The translations under genes were made by a program, and so were the position numbers. Positions 12,131-19,491 of a stretch of DNA of 19,847 nucleotides are shown here, one piece after another; position 1 is the first letter of the stretch, and every line of letters begins with the position of its first letter. The notes beneath the pieces are model-generated. The model was not told where the DNA came from. It was given only the letters and a program-made list of their open reading frames with translations, and made no database searches. Where the stretch lies: the NCBI GenBank assembly GCA_046497275.1, contig JAWOFX010000182.1, positions 1 to 19,847 of the forward strand, written 5' to 3'. The DNA comes from Promethearchaeia archaeon. Lineage in GTDB: Archaea; Asgardarchaeota; Lokiarchaeia; Sigyniarchaeales; SOKP01.

Positions 12131-14350
12131 TTAGTATTCCGTCTCAAAAGTCCGATTGACTAATTCCGCTGCATCTGAAAAGGGTGCTAAAGCCCCACCC
12201 CAATCTTCCAAAGCTTCTTGATAATTTTCTTGGAATTGAGTAACAAACTGTCTTAGTTGAGTTCTTACTTCAGAAGTCTGATTCCCTTTAATGAAAAGTG
12301 CACCAAATAATTTTTTTCCATACTCTATTAAGATCGTGATATCACCATGATCAATTGTCTTCAAAGCTTCAGTGCTCTTTGTAGTTTCTTTGATAAAAGA
12401 TGTGATGGCAGAGAACATACCTGAAATTAACCCGGGATCTTGAGAAACATCTGTAGAAAATTCGTAGTTGTAGACACCTCGACCGTCTTCATAAATAATA
12501 TATAATCCTTGTTTCTTCACTCGTTCAAAATTATAACTGAACTCAGATTTCCATATTCCTATCCGCCCTTGACCATAAAGGTATTTTAATATGAAATAAA
12601 ATCGTTTAATTTCATCTTCTTCTTGAGGTTTTATTGCACTGAGGATTCTATTTTTTTCCAATTTGGTTAATAGATTTATCACTTCTTCTCTCGAATCTTC
12701 TGGTGTTTCAGGAATTGTTAGTTCATTTTTAGAAACTAAGTATTCACTATCTTTTTCCCTATAATCATTATATGTAAAAAAATTATCCACATTGGTGAAA
12801 ATCATTTTCTTAACATATTTTTCATCAATAGGTATATTAGAGATTTTAAATCTTTTAAGAATGTAATAGGTGAAACATCCCCATAAAATAATGCTAAAGA
12901 GGTATTCCGTATAAATGTAAGGAATTGCTAATATACCTAAAACACCTGTTAAATCTGCTTCTAAGACAGCGCTTCTAAGTGTGAAAAAGTCGAACCCAAA
13001 AAGTGATGTATAACTTACCCGTCCCGTTAGCCAATACTCTTCCGAAGCGAAATTTAATATCGGAGCAAATCCTACAAGGGGAAATAGTATTGAAATTACT
13101 AAAGTTATGAAAACGAATCCTATAAGGCTAGAGAGCACGTTCCTTGAAAATCTAAATACATAAATGAGTGATATTGAAGTGATTAAAATCGGTATCAATG
13201 CAAACAAAATATTTTCTATAATTATTAAAAAATCGAGACTCATAGTCTGGGTTAAATTTGGATCGGCATTGAAGAGACCCGAATTAATTGTGGGATCGGG
13301 ATTAAAACCATATACAGGACCGAAAATCGTAAGGGAAAATATCCAATAAACAACCAAGTAAGCAATAGAAGCAATAAGACCGAACACTACTCCATAATAA
13401 AATCCAGATTTTTTAGCCGTCTTTATTTTTTGTTTTTTGTTTTTCCACCAATCAATTATTTTAATTAAGATAAAAATTGAGATTTGCTCAAAGATATCCA
13501 AAAAAAGAATGAATACAAAAGTGGCCATCATAAAGTAGGCAAAAAAGTAAATAAGAGTATTAAGAGAATCTGTATATTCAATTATAAATAAAAAGATTGA
13601 AATGATTGAAATTGGTGCGCCAACCATATATAAGCTTCGAAATGTTTGTTCTCTGACTTTCTCCCCGAAATATCTTCCCTTAATAGCCAATTTACTTGAA
13701 TATAAAAGTTCGATACTAAAAATAACAACAGCTAAATACACGAAAAGAATCTCTATAAACCACCCAAGAGCGGTCTCTGAGGCGACGAAATCTAATGTCT
13801 CTAACTCTGAAACTTTTAAAACTGTTTGAAGAATATAAAGTGATACAGGTAATAACACTAACATTAATTTCAGAATTTCCTTTTCTCGAGTCCAATCTTT
13901 ATTTAATAATTCATTCTTTATAGTCTCCAATGGACTTCTGTTAAACTCATACGTTAAGTTATTTAGATTCTCCTTTAAGGATCCTTTTTCCTTTCGCAGT
14001 CTGTTCCAAATCATCACGAATGAAATAAGAGGAGCAACAAGAAATATAAATGGCAATGTAGTCAACGGATAGGAAATAAAAGTTGTTATAAGAGTAATAA
14101 AATGTGTAGGCATGTATGCTAGGCTTAGAGCTTCTTGACCTGGAGAGACTTCTAAATTATCTGGGGTCAAATTAAATTGAAATATAACTGGGAGTATCCA
14201 GTAGATGAAATAAAATACGGAAATCCCTATAGCGATTCGATAGTATAATTTTCCAATAGCACGATTCCAAATAAAAATTAATGGAATGAATAGAATAATA
14301 ATGGGAAGTAAATTCAGCACAAGTGTGAGTGAAATTTCTATAGCGGTCAT
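12131..14350 (-). CDS. Large polytopic membrane protein with a putative winged helix and a C-terminal Asgard-type longin domain
   Basis: About 12-13 hydrophobic segments in the first ~500 aa. The last 125 aa (12134-12508) read GLYIIYEDGRGVY...DPGLISGMFSAITSF...IDHGDITILIEYG...LRQFVTQFQENY...DWGG, the longin pattern. Confidence 0.8.
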   Translation of the reverse strand: MTAIEISLTLVLNLLPIIILFIPLIFIWNRAIGKLYYRIAIGISVFYFIYWILPVIFQFNLTPDNLEVSPGQEALSLAYMPTHFITLITTFISYPLTTLPFIFLVAPLISFVMIWNRLRKEKGSLKENLNNLTYEFNRSPLETIKNELLNKDWTREKEILKLMLVLLPVSLYILQTVLKVSELETLDFVASETALGWFIEILFVYLAVVIFSIELLYSSKLAIKGRYFGEKVREQTFRSLYMVGAPISIISIFLFIIEYTDSLNTLIYFFAYFMMATFVFILFLDIFEQISIFILIKIIDWWKNKKQKIKTAKKSGFYYGVVFGLIASIAYLVVYWIFSLTIFGPVYGFNPDPTINSGLFNADPNLTQTMSLDFLIIIENILFALIPILITSISLIYVFRFSRNVLSSLIGFVFITLVISILFPLVGFAPILNFASEEYWLTGRVSYTSLFGFDFFTLRSAVLEADLTGVLGILAIPYIYTEYLFSIILWGCFTYYILKRFKISNIPIDEKYVKKMIFTNVDNFFTYNDYREKDSEYLVSKNELTIPETPEDSREEVINLLTKLEKNRILSAIKPQEEDEIKRFYFILKYLYGQGRIGIWKSEFSYNFERVKKQGLYIIYEDGRGVYNYEFSTDVSQDPGLISGMFSAITSFIKETTKSTEALKTIDHGDITILIEYGKKLFGALFIKGNQTSEVRTQLRQFVTQFQENYQEALEDWGGALAPFSDAAELVNRTFETEY

Positions 14351-14460: not shown

Positions 14461-15564
14461 ATGAGCAAAAAAATTGGTGTTTTATTTGATTATGATTTCT
14501 CCAGCCAACATAATCCACCCTACCCCCATCCCACTTTTATTTCATATGAAAATCCTTTAAGAGTTAAAGCGATTTATAATTATTTCGAGAAGGTAAAACT
14601 TTTCAATGACGACCGTATTATACGGTTAGCTCCAAAACTTATAGATGATCATATGTTAGAATTAGCACATTCTAAATATTATATTGATACAATTCAAAGA
14701 CTCTCGAAGTTTGGTAGTGGGCTTCTCTCAGAGGAGGTTTTTATTGTAAAAGATACGTTTTTACTTGCTAAAAAAGCTATAGGTGGTGTAATAGAGTCCA
14801 TAGATGCCGTTCTTTCTGAAAGAGTAAAACAGTCCTTTGCGATTGTGAGACCACCAGGTCATCATGCAATGCGTGAGAAAGGTGCTGGTTTATGTATTTT
14901 TAATAATATCGCAGCAGGTATATTAAATCTAAAAAATAAGGGTTATAATAAGAAAATAGCCATCATTGATATTGATGACCATTATGGAGATGGACTTGCT
15001 CAATATTTTTATGAAGATCCAGACATTCTCTATTTTTCTGTGCATGAATTTGATTTCCTTGAAGGAGACATAGGATTTATTACAGAAACGGGTGCTGATG
15101 AGGGAATCGGAAAAACCATTAATTACCCCATTCCAATGAACACCACAGATGATAATTTTTTGGAATTTATGGATATAATTGAACTTATTTTAAAAGAGTT
15201 TAACCCAGATATCATTATTGTTGCAGTTGGGTTCGATATGTACTTTGATGATCCAATTGGTAATTGTCTGTTGACTAGTAAATCATACTATGATTTTACC
15301 GTTTCTATAAAAAGAATTGCCGAGAATGTCTGTGAAGGGAGATTAGTTTTCGTTTTAGAGGGAGGATATAGCTTAATCGGACTACCATTATGTGTATATT
15401 CCATAATACGAGCATTGCTTCAAGAAGAGTATATCGATTATGATTTTGAAAAAATAGATTTTTCCAAGTATCGGAGCAACATTGAAATCTCAAAAATTAA
15501 AGAGGCTTTAATAAATCTATTGAAGGATAACTGGAATTGCTTTGATGAGTCTTCTGAACTATAA
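14461..15564 (+). CDS. Zn-dependent histone deacetylase family protein
   Basis: RPPGHHA, CIFNN, DIDDHYGDG (DxH), SVH, GFD..DDPIG and VLEGGY give a complete catalytic set. Confidence 0.93.
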   Translation: MSKKIGVLFDYDFSSQHNPPYPHPTFISYENPLRVKAIYNYFEKVKLFNDDRIIRLAPKLIDDHMLELAHSKYYIDTIQRLSKFGSGLLSEEVFIVKDTFLLAKKAIGGVIESIDAVLSERVKQSFAIVRPPGHHAMREKGAGLCIFNNIAAGILNLKNKGYNKKIAIIDIDDHYGDGLAQYFYEDPDILYFSVHEFDFLEGDIGFITETGADEGIGKTINYPIPMNTTDDNFLEFMDIIELILKEFNPDIIIVAVGFDMYFDDPIGNCLLTSKSYYDFTVSIKRIAENVCEGRLVFVLEGGYSLIGLPLCVYSIIRALLQEEYIDYDFEKIDFSKYRSNIEISKIKEALINLLKDNWNCFDESSEL

Positions 15565-15597: not shown

Positions 15598-15999
15598 TTA
15601 CACTAAAGGTTCCATTTTTTTTGCGTATTCTTGAACAGTAAATAATGCATCACGAGGACCTGCTTGGGGATTTATATAACATACTAGGGCACCCTCTCCC
15701 CCAATAGGTATAGGACATATGATGAGATGACCTTTTCCCTTAATATTAGTACCAATCTTGCGCTCTTCAGTATTCTCTACAATCATGTACTTAATCCCTT
15801 GTACCTCTATACTTGAAATCCCTTTCTCTCCAAGTTTTAATTTCTTTCCAAGGAGCTCATTAAATTGATCCAAATCATTTGAAATATCCCAATTTTCAGT
15901 TTGAGTGACTAAATTACCTTGTGTGTTAATTATTGCGACTCCGTACACGTTTTGTTCTTCATCTAAAAGACTATCAATAAGAGATTCTAATTCAGACAT
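15598..15999 (-). CDS. Profilin (Lokiarchaeota type; eukaryotic signature protein)
   Basis: 133 aa. TQTENWDISND, QGIKYMIVENTEERKIGTN, GKGHLIICPIPIGG and NPQAGPRD closely match structurally characterised Loki profilin as I recall it. Confidence 0.93.
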   Translation of the reverse strand: MSELESLIDSLLDEEQNVYGVAIINTQGNLVTQTENWDISNDLDQFNELLGKKLKLGEKGISSIEVQGIKYMIVENTEERKIGTNIKGKGHLIICPIPIGGEGALVCYINPQAGPRDALFTVQEYAKKMEPLV

Positions 16000-16034
16000 T
16001 TTTTCCTATAATATTAAATGCGTGTTTTTTTATA

Positions 16035-16050
16035 TTAGTAACATTACTAA
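16035..16050. promoter_or_regulatory. Palindrome TTAGTAA-CA-TTACTAA in the divergent profilin/permease promoter region
   Basis: Perfect 7-bp arms at 16035-16041 and 16044-16050 inside the 104-bp intergenic spacer. Confidence 0.4.
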
Positions 16051-16103
16051 AACAATATAAATTAATCATTAATAATACGATAATATCATATCAGTGATTT
16101 CAA

Positions 16104-16646
16104 ATGTTTCGTATGTTCAAGAAAGGAGTGTTGTTAATCCTTAGAGAAAAAAGAACTTTTATAATTTTCATGCTCATTTATACGATATTAATCTTCTTGA
16201 CCAGTTTGTTTTTTGAAAACAGTCTTGCTGGGAATTTTGGTGAGGTCTCTGGATATTTAGTGGTAATCTTTTTATTTACCAGTCTAATTTTATCACTTCT
16301 TTATGCATGGATTCTTGTTTCGCGGAAACGAAGGGACTGGGCAACATTGAAGTGTATAGGATATACAAATAGAAATATAATAACTATAGTTTCAGGTATT
16401 ATTCTATTTACTTCATTAATGGGACTCTTGATTGTAATTGAGATATTATTCCATTACACAGCCATTTTTACGTATATAGATACAACCGAAATTAGTACTG
16501 GATTACCTTCTATTCTTATTGGATTATATCCAGTAATAATAACAACAGTGTTATTTATTTTAGTTCAAGTTATTTCAATAGCGTTAATTTATCGAAAAGT
16601 ATTAAAAGTAAGGCCGATAGTTGCCTTAAAGAGGGTGGGTGAGTAG
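16104..16646 (+). CDS. FtsX/MacB-type ABC permease, minimal 4-TM form
   Basis: N-terminal amphipathic helix, four TMs, coupling helix RKRRDWATLKCIGY (family pattern RxxEIGxLKAxG) and C-terminal KVRPIVALK. Confidence 0.85.
   Translation: MFRMFKKGVLLILREKRTFIIFMLIYTILIFLTSLFFENSLAGNFGEVSGYLVVIFLFTSLILSLLYAWILVSRKRRDWATLKCIGYTNRNIITIVSGIILFTSLMGLLIVIEILFHYTAIFTYIDTTEISTGLPSILIGLYPVIITTVLFILVQVISIALIYRKVLKVRPIVALKRVGE
16638..16642 (+). promoter_or_regulatory. Shine-Dalgarno-like GGTGA for the ABC ATPase, inside the permease 3' end
   Basis: GGTGA 9 nt before ATG 16652 matches the archaeal extended SD; the genes are only 5 nt apart. Confidence 0.55.
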
Positions 16647-16651
16647 AAAAA

Positions 16652-17344
16652 ATGCCAATAGATATGGATACAATGATTGAGGCAATTGATGTAAATAAGG
16701 AATATAGACGATCTGGAGCTATCATTCGTGCGTTAGCAGACGTTAATGTAACTATAAAATCGGGGGAGTTCGTAATCGTCCAAGGTCCCACAGGATGTGG
16801 AAAATCAACGCTTCTTAATGTGCTATCGGGGTTAGATTTTCCAGATTCAGGTAAAATCATTTTTGATGGAGAGAATATCGCAAGATCTACGGAGGACAGA
16901 CTTGCGAGGATAAGACGGATGAAAGTTGGATTTGTATTTCAAGATTTTAATTTAATTAGTACTTTTACCGCATTAGAGAACGTAGAAAGTGTACTTTGGC
17001 CAACCGTGTTAAGAGCGTCCGAGATTGAAAATAGAGCAATCAATGCGCTACGAGACGTGAATCTTCTTGATAGAAAAGATCATTATCCAGTTCAGATGAG
17101 TGGTGGAGAGAAACAAAAATGTGGCTTGGCACGAGCAATAATCCATCGTCCTCGAGTAATTTTAGCTGACGAGCCTACAGGAAATCTGGATCCTCAATCA
17201 GAAAAAGAAATTATGGATTTACTAAAAAAGATTAATAAAGAATCAGACACCACAGTAGTCGTGGTTACTCACAGAGAAAAATTAACATCCTACGCAGACA
17301 AAGTTGTACAAATGAAAGATGGAAGAGTAATCAATGTAAAATAA
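16652..17344 (+). CDS. ABC ATP-binding protein, LolD/MacB/FtsE subfamily
   Basis: Walker A GPTGCGKST, Q-loop GFVFQDFNL, signature MSGGEKQ, Walker B/D-loop ILADEPTGNLD, H-switch VVTH. Confidence 0.95.
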   Translation: MPIDMDTMIEAIDVNKEYRRSGAIIRALADVNVTIKSGEFVIVQGPTGCGKSTLLNVLSGLDFPDSGKIIFDGENIARSTEDRLARIRRMKVGFVFQDFNLISTFTALENVESVLWPTVLRASEIENRAINALRDVNLLDRKDHYPVQMSGGEKQKCGLARAIIHRPRVILADEPTGNLDPQSEKEIMDLLKKINKESDTTVVVVTHREKLTSYADKVVQMKDGRVINVK

Positions 17345-17594: not shown

Positions 17595-18329
17595 ATGGGA
17601 ATTGGACGTGTTATTGGTTCGGGTATCGTAGGTATGCTTTTTTTAGTTCCATTTGCTTGGCTTTCTTTTTTTGCATTAGATTTAACTGGAACAGTGACTG
17701 GCGGACTTATTACAGGGTTAAATGATCTCTTTGCCAGTATAGGAGGGCCTATAGGAGCAATACTAACTTTTGTTGGTGGGATGTTTATTGGACTTCTATT
17801 AGTAATATTATTTCCGATTCATTGGGCACTCATGTATAGACCTGATGATGTAATGCTATTAGTAGGGCTTGTAATGCCTTGGGTTTTGGCTTGTACTGTA
17901 GCTTCTGCTATATTTGCTCATTCTCCTCGAGGGGGGCTCCATACAAGTCTTGCAGTAGGAATAGGATATCTAATCTTGAGTTTTGTCCTTTATGGTGTCC
18001 TTCTTTTTATAATTAGAGCAATAAGTGGAGGGATGGGGGGTCTTGTTATAGATCTTATTGATGGGTTAAGTCTAGGACTGACAGACTTGCCTTTTCTAGC
18101 AGCTGTGTCGTTAGCAATATTGGAAGGATGTTTGGTTGGAAGTGTCTTTGGTGCGTTCATCGGCAGCTTAAAATATAAGCCAGAAGGAGCAAAAAAACCA
18201 GTAAAAAAGAAGGGCAAAACACCAGAATCTGAACCTAAATTGGACACATCGGCTGATTATTGTACAAACTGTGGAGCGAAGATAACGCCTGGTAATGAAT
18301 TCTGTACTAATTGCGGTCAAAAAGTCTAA
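17595..18329 (+). CDS. Gly-rich membrane protein with a C-terminal double zinc ribbon
   Basis: About 5 hydrophobic Gly-rich segments, a Lys-rich linker, then CTNCG...CTNCG. Confidence 0.85.
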   Translation: MGIGRVIGSGIVGMLFLVPFAWLSFFALDLTGTVTGGLITGLNDLFASIGGPIGAILTFVGGMFIGLLLVILFPIHWALMYRPDDVMLLVGLVMPWVLACTVASAIFAHSPRGGLHTSLAVGIGYLILSFVLYGVLLFIIRAISGGMGGLVIDLIDGLSLGLTDLPFLAAVSLAILEGCLVGSVFGAFIGSLKYKPEGAKKPVKKKGKTPESEPKLDTSADYCTNCGAKITPGNEFCTNCGQKV

Positions 18330-18477: not shown

Positions 18478-19491
18478 ATGAGTCGTCAGATTAAAGGCGT
18501 ATTGCTAAATCGTATTTTGGTATTAGTTATGATTATATTAATTCCTGTGGCAATATTCTTAATCTTCTTATTCGTTGATTTTGAATTATGGTATTCAACA
18601 GATCCCATATTGACATTTTGGATTATTAAAGTGGCATGTCCACTTGTATTTGGTGTATCATGGTTATTTTTTATGATTTTGTTCGCGGATAGGCTTGCAT
18701 TGACGATAGATTCAATGGATAGAGTAGTCTCAATAATTCCTCTTAGATTAAAATTATTTTATGGTATGATTGCGATAGTTGTATTGTTTATTTTCGTGTT
18801 TCCCTTGATTTCTCCTTTAATTGGAGTTATCAGTTTTATGTCTCTCGCGTGGAGAGCAACGACTTTCAAGAAGAAAGAATGGGGTGATTCAGGAAGTCCT
18901 TTTTATACAAAGATTCTTATGGTTTTAGCTGCCGTGCTTCCAATTTTTTGTAGTGTATCCATCATCCCAGAATATTTAGTCCTTTCTGCCTTTTTAACAA
19001 CTCAAATATGGGCGCCTATAACTGATTTCGTATATACGATCTCATATTGTCTCTGTACCGCTTTAGCAATTGGATCTCTTTTTTATCTTGTTGAAAATAA
19101 AGGAGTAAGTGAATATGAGGTGATTTTGGTTGACACCACTCAAAAGAAGTCGTTTTGGTATGTCAAATTTGTAGAATTAGGATTATTTGTCTTCTTCCTC
19201 TTTTTGGCTTATGGAGGTTTTGAAATCATCGAACTTTTCTATACAGCGGGATTTGTAATCGTAGTTTTTGTTTCAATTGTCAACCATTTTTCAGAAAAAC
19301 AAAAGACAGGAAAGGTAAGAGGACACATTCTTGGCTATCTTTTAGCTGCGATTTTTCTAGGATCTAATTCACTCGTCTTTTATATTGATTTACCAGATTT
19401 TATAAATATTATAAGTTTAATTGTATTAGCAGGTGTGTTTATTGTGGTATTTCTTCTCACCTTTATATATCTTGAAGAAACCAAATTCTAA
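18478..19491 (+). CDS. Uncharacterised multi-pass membrane protein
   Basis: 337 aa with about 10-11 hydrophobic segments. GGAGGT at 18461-18466. Confidence 0.8.
   Translation: MSRQIKGVLLNRILVLVMIILIPVAIFLIFLFVDFELWYSTDPILTFWIIKVACPLVFGVSWLFFMILFADRLALTIDSMDRVVSIIPLRLKLFYGMIAIVVLFIFVFPLISPLIGVISFMSLAWRATTFKKKEWGDSGSPFYTKILMVLAAVLPIFCSVSIIPEYLVLSAFLTTQIWAPITDFVYTISYCLCTALAIGSLFYLVENKGVSEYEVILVDTTQKKSFWYVKFVELGLFVFFLFLAYGGFEIIELFYTAGFVIVVFVSIVNHFSEKQKTGKVRGHILGYLLAAIFLGSNSLVFYIDLPDFINIISLIVLAGVFIVVFLLTFIYLEETKF

Follow-up and report, generated by a model that had tools for sequence, protein, structure and literature searches.

Linkage of a profilin gene with a minimal type VII ABC module in four families within one order of Lokiarchaeia

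The closest described relatives of the system presented here are the type VII ATP-binding cassette (ABC) assemblies of bacteria. FtsEX interacts with FtsA in E. coli, and force transmission rather than transport is thought to be its role. MacB, LolCDE, HrtBA, YtrEF and BceAB share its membrane-domain fold and ATPase class, and all act via a large outer domain; to our knowledge, all characterized FtsX, MacB, LolCE and HrtB proteins work through an extracytoplasmic domain. Here, we describe a locus in which an ABC pair of this class stands head-to-head with a gene for profilin, a regulator of actin polymerization. The locus lies in a stretch of 19,847 nucleotides from Promethearchaeia archaeon (contig JAWOFX010000182.1 of assembly GCA_046497275.1; hereafter the window), which is one contig of a host genome of 3.85 Mb that is 98.9% complete. 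In the source records, close homologues of the window proteins carry the label Lokiarchaeota or Promethearchaeota. The three open reading frames (ORFs) reported by a first-pass annotation of the window were confirmed: profilin on the minus strand (15598-15999), and a permease (16104-16646) and an ATPase (16652-17344) on the plus strand, exactly 104 bp separating the divergent start codons.

The 133-aa profilin scored 24.5 bits against Pfam PF00235 (E=3.2e-5), narrowly missing the gathering cut-off of 25. Such a marginal miss is typical for divergent archaeal members, and the matches to solved structures override it. A phmmer search of the PDB returned 5yed and 5yee (E=3.6e-60) and 5zzb (E=3.5e-58) over residues 3-132, with ~75% identity across the full length, followed by the weaker matches 5zza (E=3.9e-11) and 7pbh (named Profilin, E=8.5e-6). 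We take 5yed, 5yee, 5zzb, 5zza and 7pbh to be Loki profilin-1 and -2, Odin profilin and a Heimdall profilin; the first three entries reportedly come from work by Akil and Robinson in 2018. Because the PDB matches are this strong, this gene is identified as a canonical Loki profilin rather than a distant look-alike, in agreement with the first-pass annotation, and it very probably shares the actin-binding activity of the Loki profilins that have been studied. Although it belongs to the same protein family as Loki profilin-1 and -2, it is a different sequence; the biochemistry of those two was carried out with other Lokiarchaeia sequences and rabbit actin, and we found no treatment of genomic context in that work. 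Two longer profilin-like paralogues are encoded elsewhere in the host genome. Across the four families of the order, profilin orthologues share 33-79% identity, and those of the fourth family are reciprocal best hits of the window profilin.

The 180-aa permease matches Pfam FtsX (PF02687; E=2.6e-9, 37.6 bits, above the cut-off of 25.5) and is present in a single copy in the host genome. Its AlphaFold2 (AF2) model (predicted local distance difference test [pLDDT] score of 91.7) consists of an N-terminal amphipathic helix and four transmembrane (TM) helices. The loops on the outer side of the model measure only ~6 residues (TM1-TM2, residues 42-47) and ~13 residues, leaving no extracytoplasmic domain. 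Among 32 permease orthologues, almost all have a short TM1-TM2 loop, the longest reaching ~35 residues in one Hel sequence. A Foldseek search of the PDB placed membrane domains of FtsX, HrtB, LolCE, YtrF, BceB and MacB in all top 43 positions (TM-score <=0.66, all with E>1e-3), V. cholerae FtsX (8tzj_C) being the best structural match. A sequence-profile search of the same database gave chance matches only, which made the fold search necessary. Conserved among the permeases are the N-terminal coupling helix and an R/K-rich cytoplasmic TM2-TM3 loop with an ATLKCIG motif.

The ATPase (230 aa) starts 5 nt past the permease stop and belongs to the LolD/FtsE/MacB class (Pfam ABC_tran, E=2e-32). Among NCBIfam models it is nearest to LolD, FtsE, DevA and MacB while remaining under every equivalog cut-off, with 210.2 bits for LolD (TIGR02211, cut-off 307.75) and 203.9 bits for FtsE (TIGR02673, cut-off 264.85). 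Residues invariant in 31 orthologues include G45, G50 and K51 of Walker A, Q97, the signature S150-G-G-E153, D173-E174 of Walker B and H207. We also observed that L115-W116-P117, located after the Q-loop region, is invariant or nearly so in these 31 Asgard orthologues and is specific to the family. The conserved features of permease and ATPase all face the membrane interior or the cytoplasm.

Taken together, the MacB-type four-TM fold and an ATPase with intact Walker A and B motifs, signature and H-loop argue for a catalytically competent type VII ABC module that is predicted to lack any extracytoplasmic domain. Since the large outer mechanotransmission domain is missing, we regard the pair as a variant and not as a typical type VII member. 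Profilin itself was considered as the missing outer domain of the permease and ruled out, as it has neither a signal peptide nor a TM segment. Short look-alike permeases (164-187 aa) form clusters in Spirochaetota and Bacillota in a feature search of a protein atlas. FtsX-type permeases without an outer domain may therefore extend beyond Asgard archaea, although these clusters are leads only.

Compared with FtsEX (8tzj, 8x61 and 8i6q), the window pair has the same four-helix FtsX-fold subunit with an N-terminal coupling helix, the same ABC subclass and the same two-gene organization. In contrast, the TM1-TM2 loop of FtsX spans ~100 residues or more against ~6 in the window permease, the window ATPase reaches 204 bits where the FtsE cut-off is 265, the gene order is permease then ATPase, and the neighbor is profilin; neither a peptidoglycan hydrolase activator nor FtsA is found in the context, and library scans of the window proteins revealed no division genes. 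The pair likewise differs from MacB, LolCDE, HrtBA, YtrEF and BceAB in having no large outer domain and no adaptor, lipoprotein or sensor kinase gene near it. Hence, of the FtsEX-like ABC pair described by the first-pass annotation, the type VII pair of FtsX/MacB fold stands, while the analogy with FtsEX itself looks thin with the outer domain absent from the model and the FtsE and LolD cut-offs missed.

The spacer between profilin and permease (16000-16103) carries elements expected of a divergent promoter region. We aligned 24 orthologous intergenic regions from the window's own family using MAFFT and obtained the 70% consensus TTATATA ... AAT.TAAAT.AATA ... GGTGA. In the window, a TATA-like box on the profilin side (TTATATT, 16030-16036) is conserved as TTATATA, and one on the permease side (AATATAAAT, ~16054-16062) as AAT.TAAAT. 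A Shine-Dalgarno-like AGTGA (16093-16097; consensus GGTGA) lies 6 nt before the permease ATG. By archaeal promoter rules, the two boxes are predicted to be back-to-back core promoters ~25 bp apart, which would place the transcription start of profilin near 16008 and that of the permease operon near 16084, and so the expectation that the promoters overlap or nearly overlap was roughly right. No further conserved element pointing to a site for a shared regulator was seen in the alignment of 24 spacers.

In two studies of salt-lake sediments, metatranscriptome contigs with 99-100% identity extend over parts of the profilin, permease, ATPase and downstream zinc-ribbon genes, and none of those listed bridges the spacer. 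Such contigs cannot give RNA levels, strands or starts; one of them begins at 16084, which coincides with the expected permease start and is to be taken as a hint only. Furthermore, two contigs from different studies share the start position 16646, which precedes the ATPase start codon by 6 nt; one of them carries adaptor sequence. This position may be an internal RNA 5' end or a processing site between permease and ATPase.

For head-to-head genes, a gap of ~100 bp is not unusual per se; it is the retention of the arrangement that exceeds chance. We searched 61 related genomes for profilin and the permease and compared their coordinates. Fifty-six of these genomes belong to the order and represent its four families; 17-kb loci were fetched from 20 of the genomes, and apparent exceptions were resolved individually. 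Both genes were found in 50 of the 56 genomes, and in 44 of these 50 they are direct neighbors, down to a profilin identity of 33-47%. The neighbors are divergent in 42 genomes, with gaps of ~20-230 bp in the fetched loci, and co-directional in two (G041 and G045). In two other genomes (G028 and G043) one foreign gene is inserted, in three (G039, G049 and G051) the cluster is cut by contig ends in a manner consistent with adjacency, and in one (G053) the genes are truly separated. In G039, the ATPase gene is split over two contigs, one of which carries the permease and the other profilin. The insert of G028 (L056:9092-10288) is a BNR/sialidase-like gene of 398 aa between profilin and permease, and that of G043 (L054:3907-5298) a gene of 463 aa and no known family between ATPase and profilin. 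The permease precedes the ATPase in all 40 loci examined (40/40).

In three families, profilin and the permease-ATPase pair are divergent, with a spacer of roughly 70-230 bp between them. The fourth family presents another arrangement, in which permease, ATPase, profilin and a distant homologue of the zinc-ribbon membrane protein follow each other on one strand. There, the gap between ATPase and profilin is 14-110 bp (14 bp in G045), and the arrangement looks operon-like. As profilin sits directly behind the ATPase in this family, the link has survived rearrangement.

The surroundings of the trio have changed to different extents. Within the window's own family, a whole block of eight genes is syntenic, and retention there consequently says little. 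In three single-contig genomes of the second family (L048-L050), the rest of the eight-gene block is absent within +/-8 kb and profilin, permease and ATPase remain. In the fourth family, no flanking gene has a counterpart beside the cluster in G000, in which the flanks map elsewhere; all that is shared with the window is the permease-ATPase-profilin trio and the distant zinc-ribbon homologue. As a control, we followed the divergent pair formed by a histone-deacetylase-family gene (14461-15564, plus strand) and a gene for a polytopic membrane protein of 739 aa whose soluble C-terminal domain is longin-like (12131-14350, minus strand). This pair is kept in 7/11 same-family, 1/4 second-family and 0/3 fourth-family loci; both it and the deacetylase/profilin pair decay faster than the profilin-ABC pair. 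Together with profilin, the two genes make up a block in the majority of genera of the window's family and in one genus of the second family.

Conserved divergently transcribed pairs reportedly (Korbel and colleagues, 2004) usually mark co-regulation or functional association. Adjacency kept across lineages while the flanks have changed is what we found here in four families of one order. The arrangement can already be seen in the gene table published for MK-D1, a cultured strain, where DSAG12_01904 (ATPase), DSAG12_01905 (FtsX-like) and DSAG12_01906 (profilin-like) occur in the same order, listed as table rows only (PMC7015854, Supplementary Table 3). No published comment on the profilin-ABC arrangement was found in our literature searches, nor in Imachi et al. 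2020 (PMC7015854).

We therefore favor, with a probability of roughly 0.5, a profilin-ABC neighborhood of one order that is maintained by selection and probably co-regulated. The linkage is probably, not certainly, kept by selection, because the control sample in the fourth family is small and synteny between the first two families is high. Under the selected-neighborhood reading, what keeps the genes close would be their co-regulation and a shared process on the cytoplasmic side of the membrane, and the ABC module becomes a candidate partner of the archaeal actin system. With the outer domain absent, the module cannot be expected to use the periplasmic mechanotransmission of FtsEX, MacB or LolCDE. 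More likely, ATP-driven movement of the four-helix bundles would serve to handle a membrane component, such as a lipid or a lipid-anchored molecule, or to signal to the cytoplasm. Phosphoinositide lipids are reported to release Asgard profilins from actin, and their control of these profilins is stated in a recent preprint (bioRxiv 10.1101/2025.11.30.690169). A connection between module and profilin at the level of lipids is therefore plausible: the module could alter a local membrane state that governs the availability of profilin-actin for protrusion growth. A narrower version of this reading, in which profilin binds the module directly, is improbable.

Several observations weigh against a selected neighborhood, and most of them lend themselves to a neutral account, which is a real possibility. 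In that account, profilin and the ABC pair are unrelated housekeeping units in a rearrangement-poor spot, compact back-to-back promoters are costly to separate, the co-directional form arose via a small local inversion or transposition, and the ABC pair serves as an ordinary exporter or extractor in the membrane, unconnected with actin. We built a small local baseline by mapping the flanking genes of the fetched loci back onto the window's genome, and ~25-40% of other adjacent pairs, divergent and other non-operonic ones included, are also conserved between the first two families. Since local synteny there is generally high, conservation between these families is weak evidence, as is the syntenic eight-gene block of the window's own family. 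The weight of the retention evidence rests on the fourth family, where control pairs are few (0/6 conserved, a small sample). The genomes are related, so that counts overstate independence, and G053 has lost the link.

The link is furthermore confined to one order. With a Loki profilin profile (E<=1), no profilin was detected near the ABC pair in 20 loci from 12 other families, covering every other Asgard class examined; ~5-7 kb of flank was searched on most loci and less where a contig ends. As these 12 families have the pair without profilin nearby, the module does not need profilin as a neighbor, nor profilin the module. Orthologue alignments revealed, on either the ATPase or the permease, no extra domain able to dock a soluble partner. 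In MK-D1, all three genes are expressed, with 373 reads per kilobase per million (RPKM) for the ATPase, 248 for the FtsX-like gene and 243 for the profilin-like gene (PMC7015854, Supplementary Table 3). These values say nothing about co-regulation, because they come from one condition and resemble those of unrelated neighbors.

Three results nonetheless speak against neutral synteny: in the second family, the trio outlasts all other pairs of the window's block; direct adjacency persists in 44 of 50 genomes, even where profilin has diverged to 33-47% identity; and the genes are tightly packed after the fourth-family rearrangement, down to 14 bp in G045, with the flanks elsewhere in G000. The first-pass annotation had asked whether the divergent pair is retained across Loki, Hel, Thor and Heimdall genomes, counting confinement to one lineage as one of the points against its proposal. 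Retention was borne out in four families, including a rearranged form, and it ends at the order; the lineage of confinement, though single, is broad.

Beyond the order, the ABC pair tells a longer history. A profile of the short permease found full-length matches (~170-210 aa) in 12 further Asgard families, in lineages labelled by their sources Helarchaeota, Odinarchaeum, Thorarchaeota, Borr/Sifarchaeia, Heimdallarchaeota and others, and the short form is nearly always present in one copy per genome. Other families gave C-terminal matches only, inside permeases of ~400 aa that have an outer domain. This distribution points to a module that is ancient in Asgard archaea and to a profilin link that would be a later, order-specific acquisition.

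Other lineages have other neighbors at the same place. In Odinarchaeum LCB_4, a 377-aa protein (OdinLCB4_000280, L067:7735-8868) is encoded head-to-head with the ABC pair; it has a weak match to the ARPC4 Pfam family (E=4e-4), and its AF2 model (pLDDT 72) matches ARPC4 and TRAPPC3/Bet3 chains (E ~2-4e-4). Its C-terminal CPxC...KHxDH domain recurs in the Thor loci as a separate gene of 72-78 aa, two genes downstream of the ATPase (L072:9238-9465 and equivalents in L073-L075). In genomes labelled Thor, and in those of a sister family, the gene that diverges from the ABC pair encodes a Ras/Arf-family GTPase (L070:7891-8763, with a longin-like N-terminal part, and L071:8089-8625), and the pair is followed by a gene for a SNAP/PCI-like helical protein of 264-294 aa (L070:5548-6342, L071:5502-6332). 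The neighbors in the remaining outside families are ordinary metabolic genes.

Three eukaryote-signature neighbors among ~11 independent arrangements exceed the expectation for genes making up ~4% of the genome, in a rough, post hoc estimate, as this category was defined only after inspection. The head-to-head eukaryote-signature regulators of other lineages are thus suggestive. They raise the rather unlikely idea that the ABC pair is an Asgard-wide membrane machine working with eukaryote-like cytoskeleton and trafficking regulators, and that different lineages have wired it to different ones: the Loki order to profilin, Odinarchaeia to an ARPC4/TRAPPC3-like protein, and Thor with its sister family to Ras/Arf GTPases. 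If true, archaeal actin and small-GTPase systems would have in this pair an ATP-driven membrane anchor or regulator of prokaryotic type, one without a eukaryotic counterpart.

The first-pass annotation had suggested that the ABC pair may link an ATP-driven change in membrane conformation to the Lokiactin cytoskeleton, for instance during protrusion growth or division, and not export a substrate. In its specific form, this proposal makes the pair an analogue of FtsEX that binds profilin or actin. The FtsX fold of the permease with V. cholerae FtsX as its best structural match, the proximity of a catalytically intact ATPase to LolD and FtsE, the order-wide linkage with its operon-like placement behind the ATPase in one family, and the FtsEX-FtsA precedent all speak for it. 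We nevertheless consider this proposal improbable, given the missing extracytoplasmic domain and FtsE cut-off, the lack of any peptidoglycan or FtsA context in the Asgard archaea considered here, two subunits devoid of extra cytoplasmic domains, and a module that is universal in lineages whose profilin lies elsewhere. A complex prediction with two permeases, two ATPases and one profilin, run with a separate alignment for each protein, scored 0.00 and gave no answer, which counts neither for nor against binding. In the main text of a Lokiactin co-immunoprecipitation (Co-IP) study in L. ossiferum, profilin, gelsolins, an Arf GTPase and BAR proteins are named and no ABC protein is, which also weighs against the selected neighborhood; the authors state there that membrane proteins are under-represented (PMC13716822). 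Direct coupling of the ABC pair to Lokiactin is unsupported.

That profilin is a mere passenger of a functional unit made of the ABC pair and two Asgard-specific membrane proteins of unassigned function, one with a zinc ribbon and one of 337 aa, is very improbable. The zinc-ribbon protein does travel with the cluster in the first and fourth families as well as in G042, and the 337-aa protein lies behind the ATPase again in a distant Heimdall-labelled genome, but L048-L050 lack both within +/-8 kb while profilin remains, and the fourth-family profilin lies between ATPase and zinc-ribbon protein rather than at the edge.

These two genes lie downstream of the ATPase. The first (17595-18329, plus strand) encodes a polytopic membrane protein of 244 aa with a C-terminal zinc ribbon (Zn_Ribbon_1, E=1e-7, residues 222-243 only), which is its only Pfam match; its nearest clusters in the protein atlas are mostly from Promethearchaeota. 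A homologue is found behind the ATPase in most same-family loci, nearby in G042, and behind profilin in the fourth family, and the protein is a frequent fourth member of the cluster. The second gene (18478-19491, plus strand) encodes a polytopic membrane protein of 337 aa that matches no Pfam family. It has homologues in 10 of the 11 same-family loci, and its atlas clusters are unnamed, those with a recorded taxon being Promethearchaeota. A homologue is also located directly downstream of the ATPase in the Heimdall-labelled genome (L076:5832-6824, E=1.5e-19); as this genome belongs to a distant class, the 337-aa protein may have been associated with the ABC module for longer than profilin has.

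Should the link between profilin and the ABC pair prove neutral, it would still mark a limit of gene-order inference, as family-to-family synteny is unexpectedly high here. In recent studies of how cultured Asgard archaea crawl and form protrusions, the proteins named are limited to profilins, gelsolins, an Arf GTPase and BAR proteins. An order-wide link between profilin and a membrane ATPase adds a concrete candidate for a regulator that would connect Lokiactin to the membrane, and a cheap one to pursue in the existing cultures of MK-D1 and L. ossiferum. It also draws attention to an uncharacterized, Asgard-wide minimal type VII ABC module that, as predicted here, would be unable to work as its bacterial relatives do.

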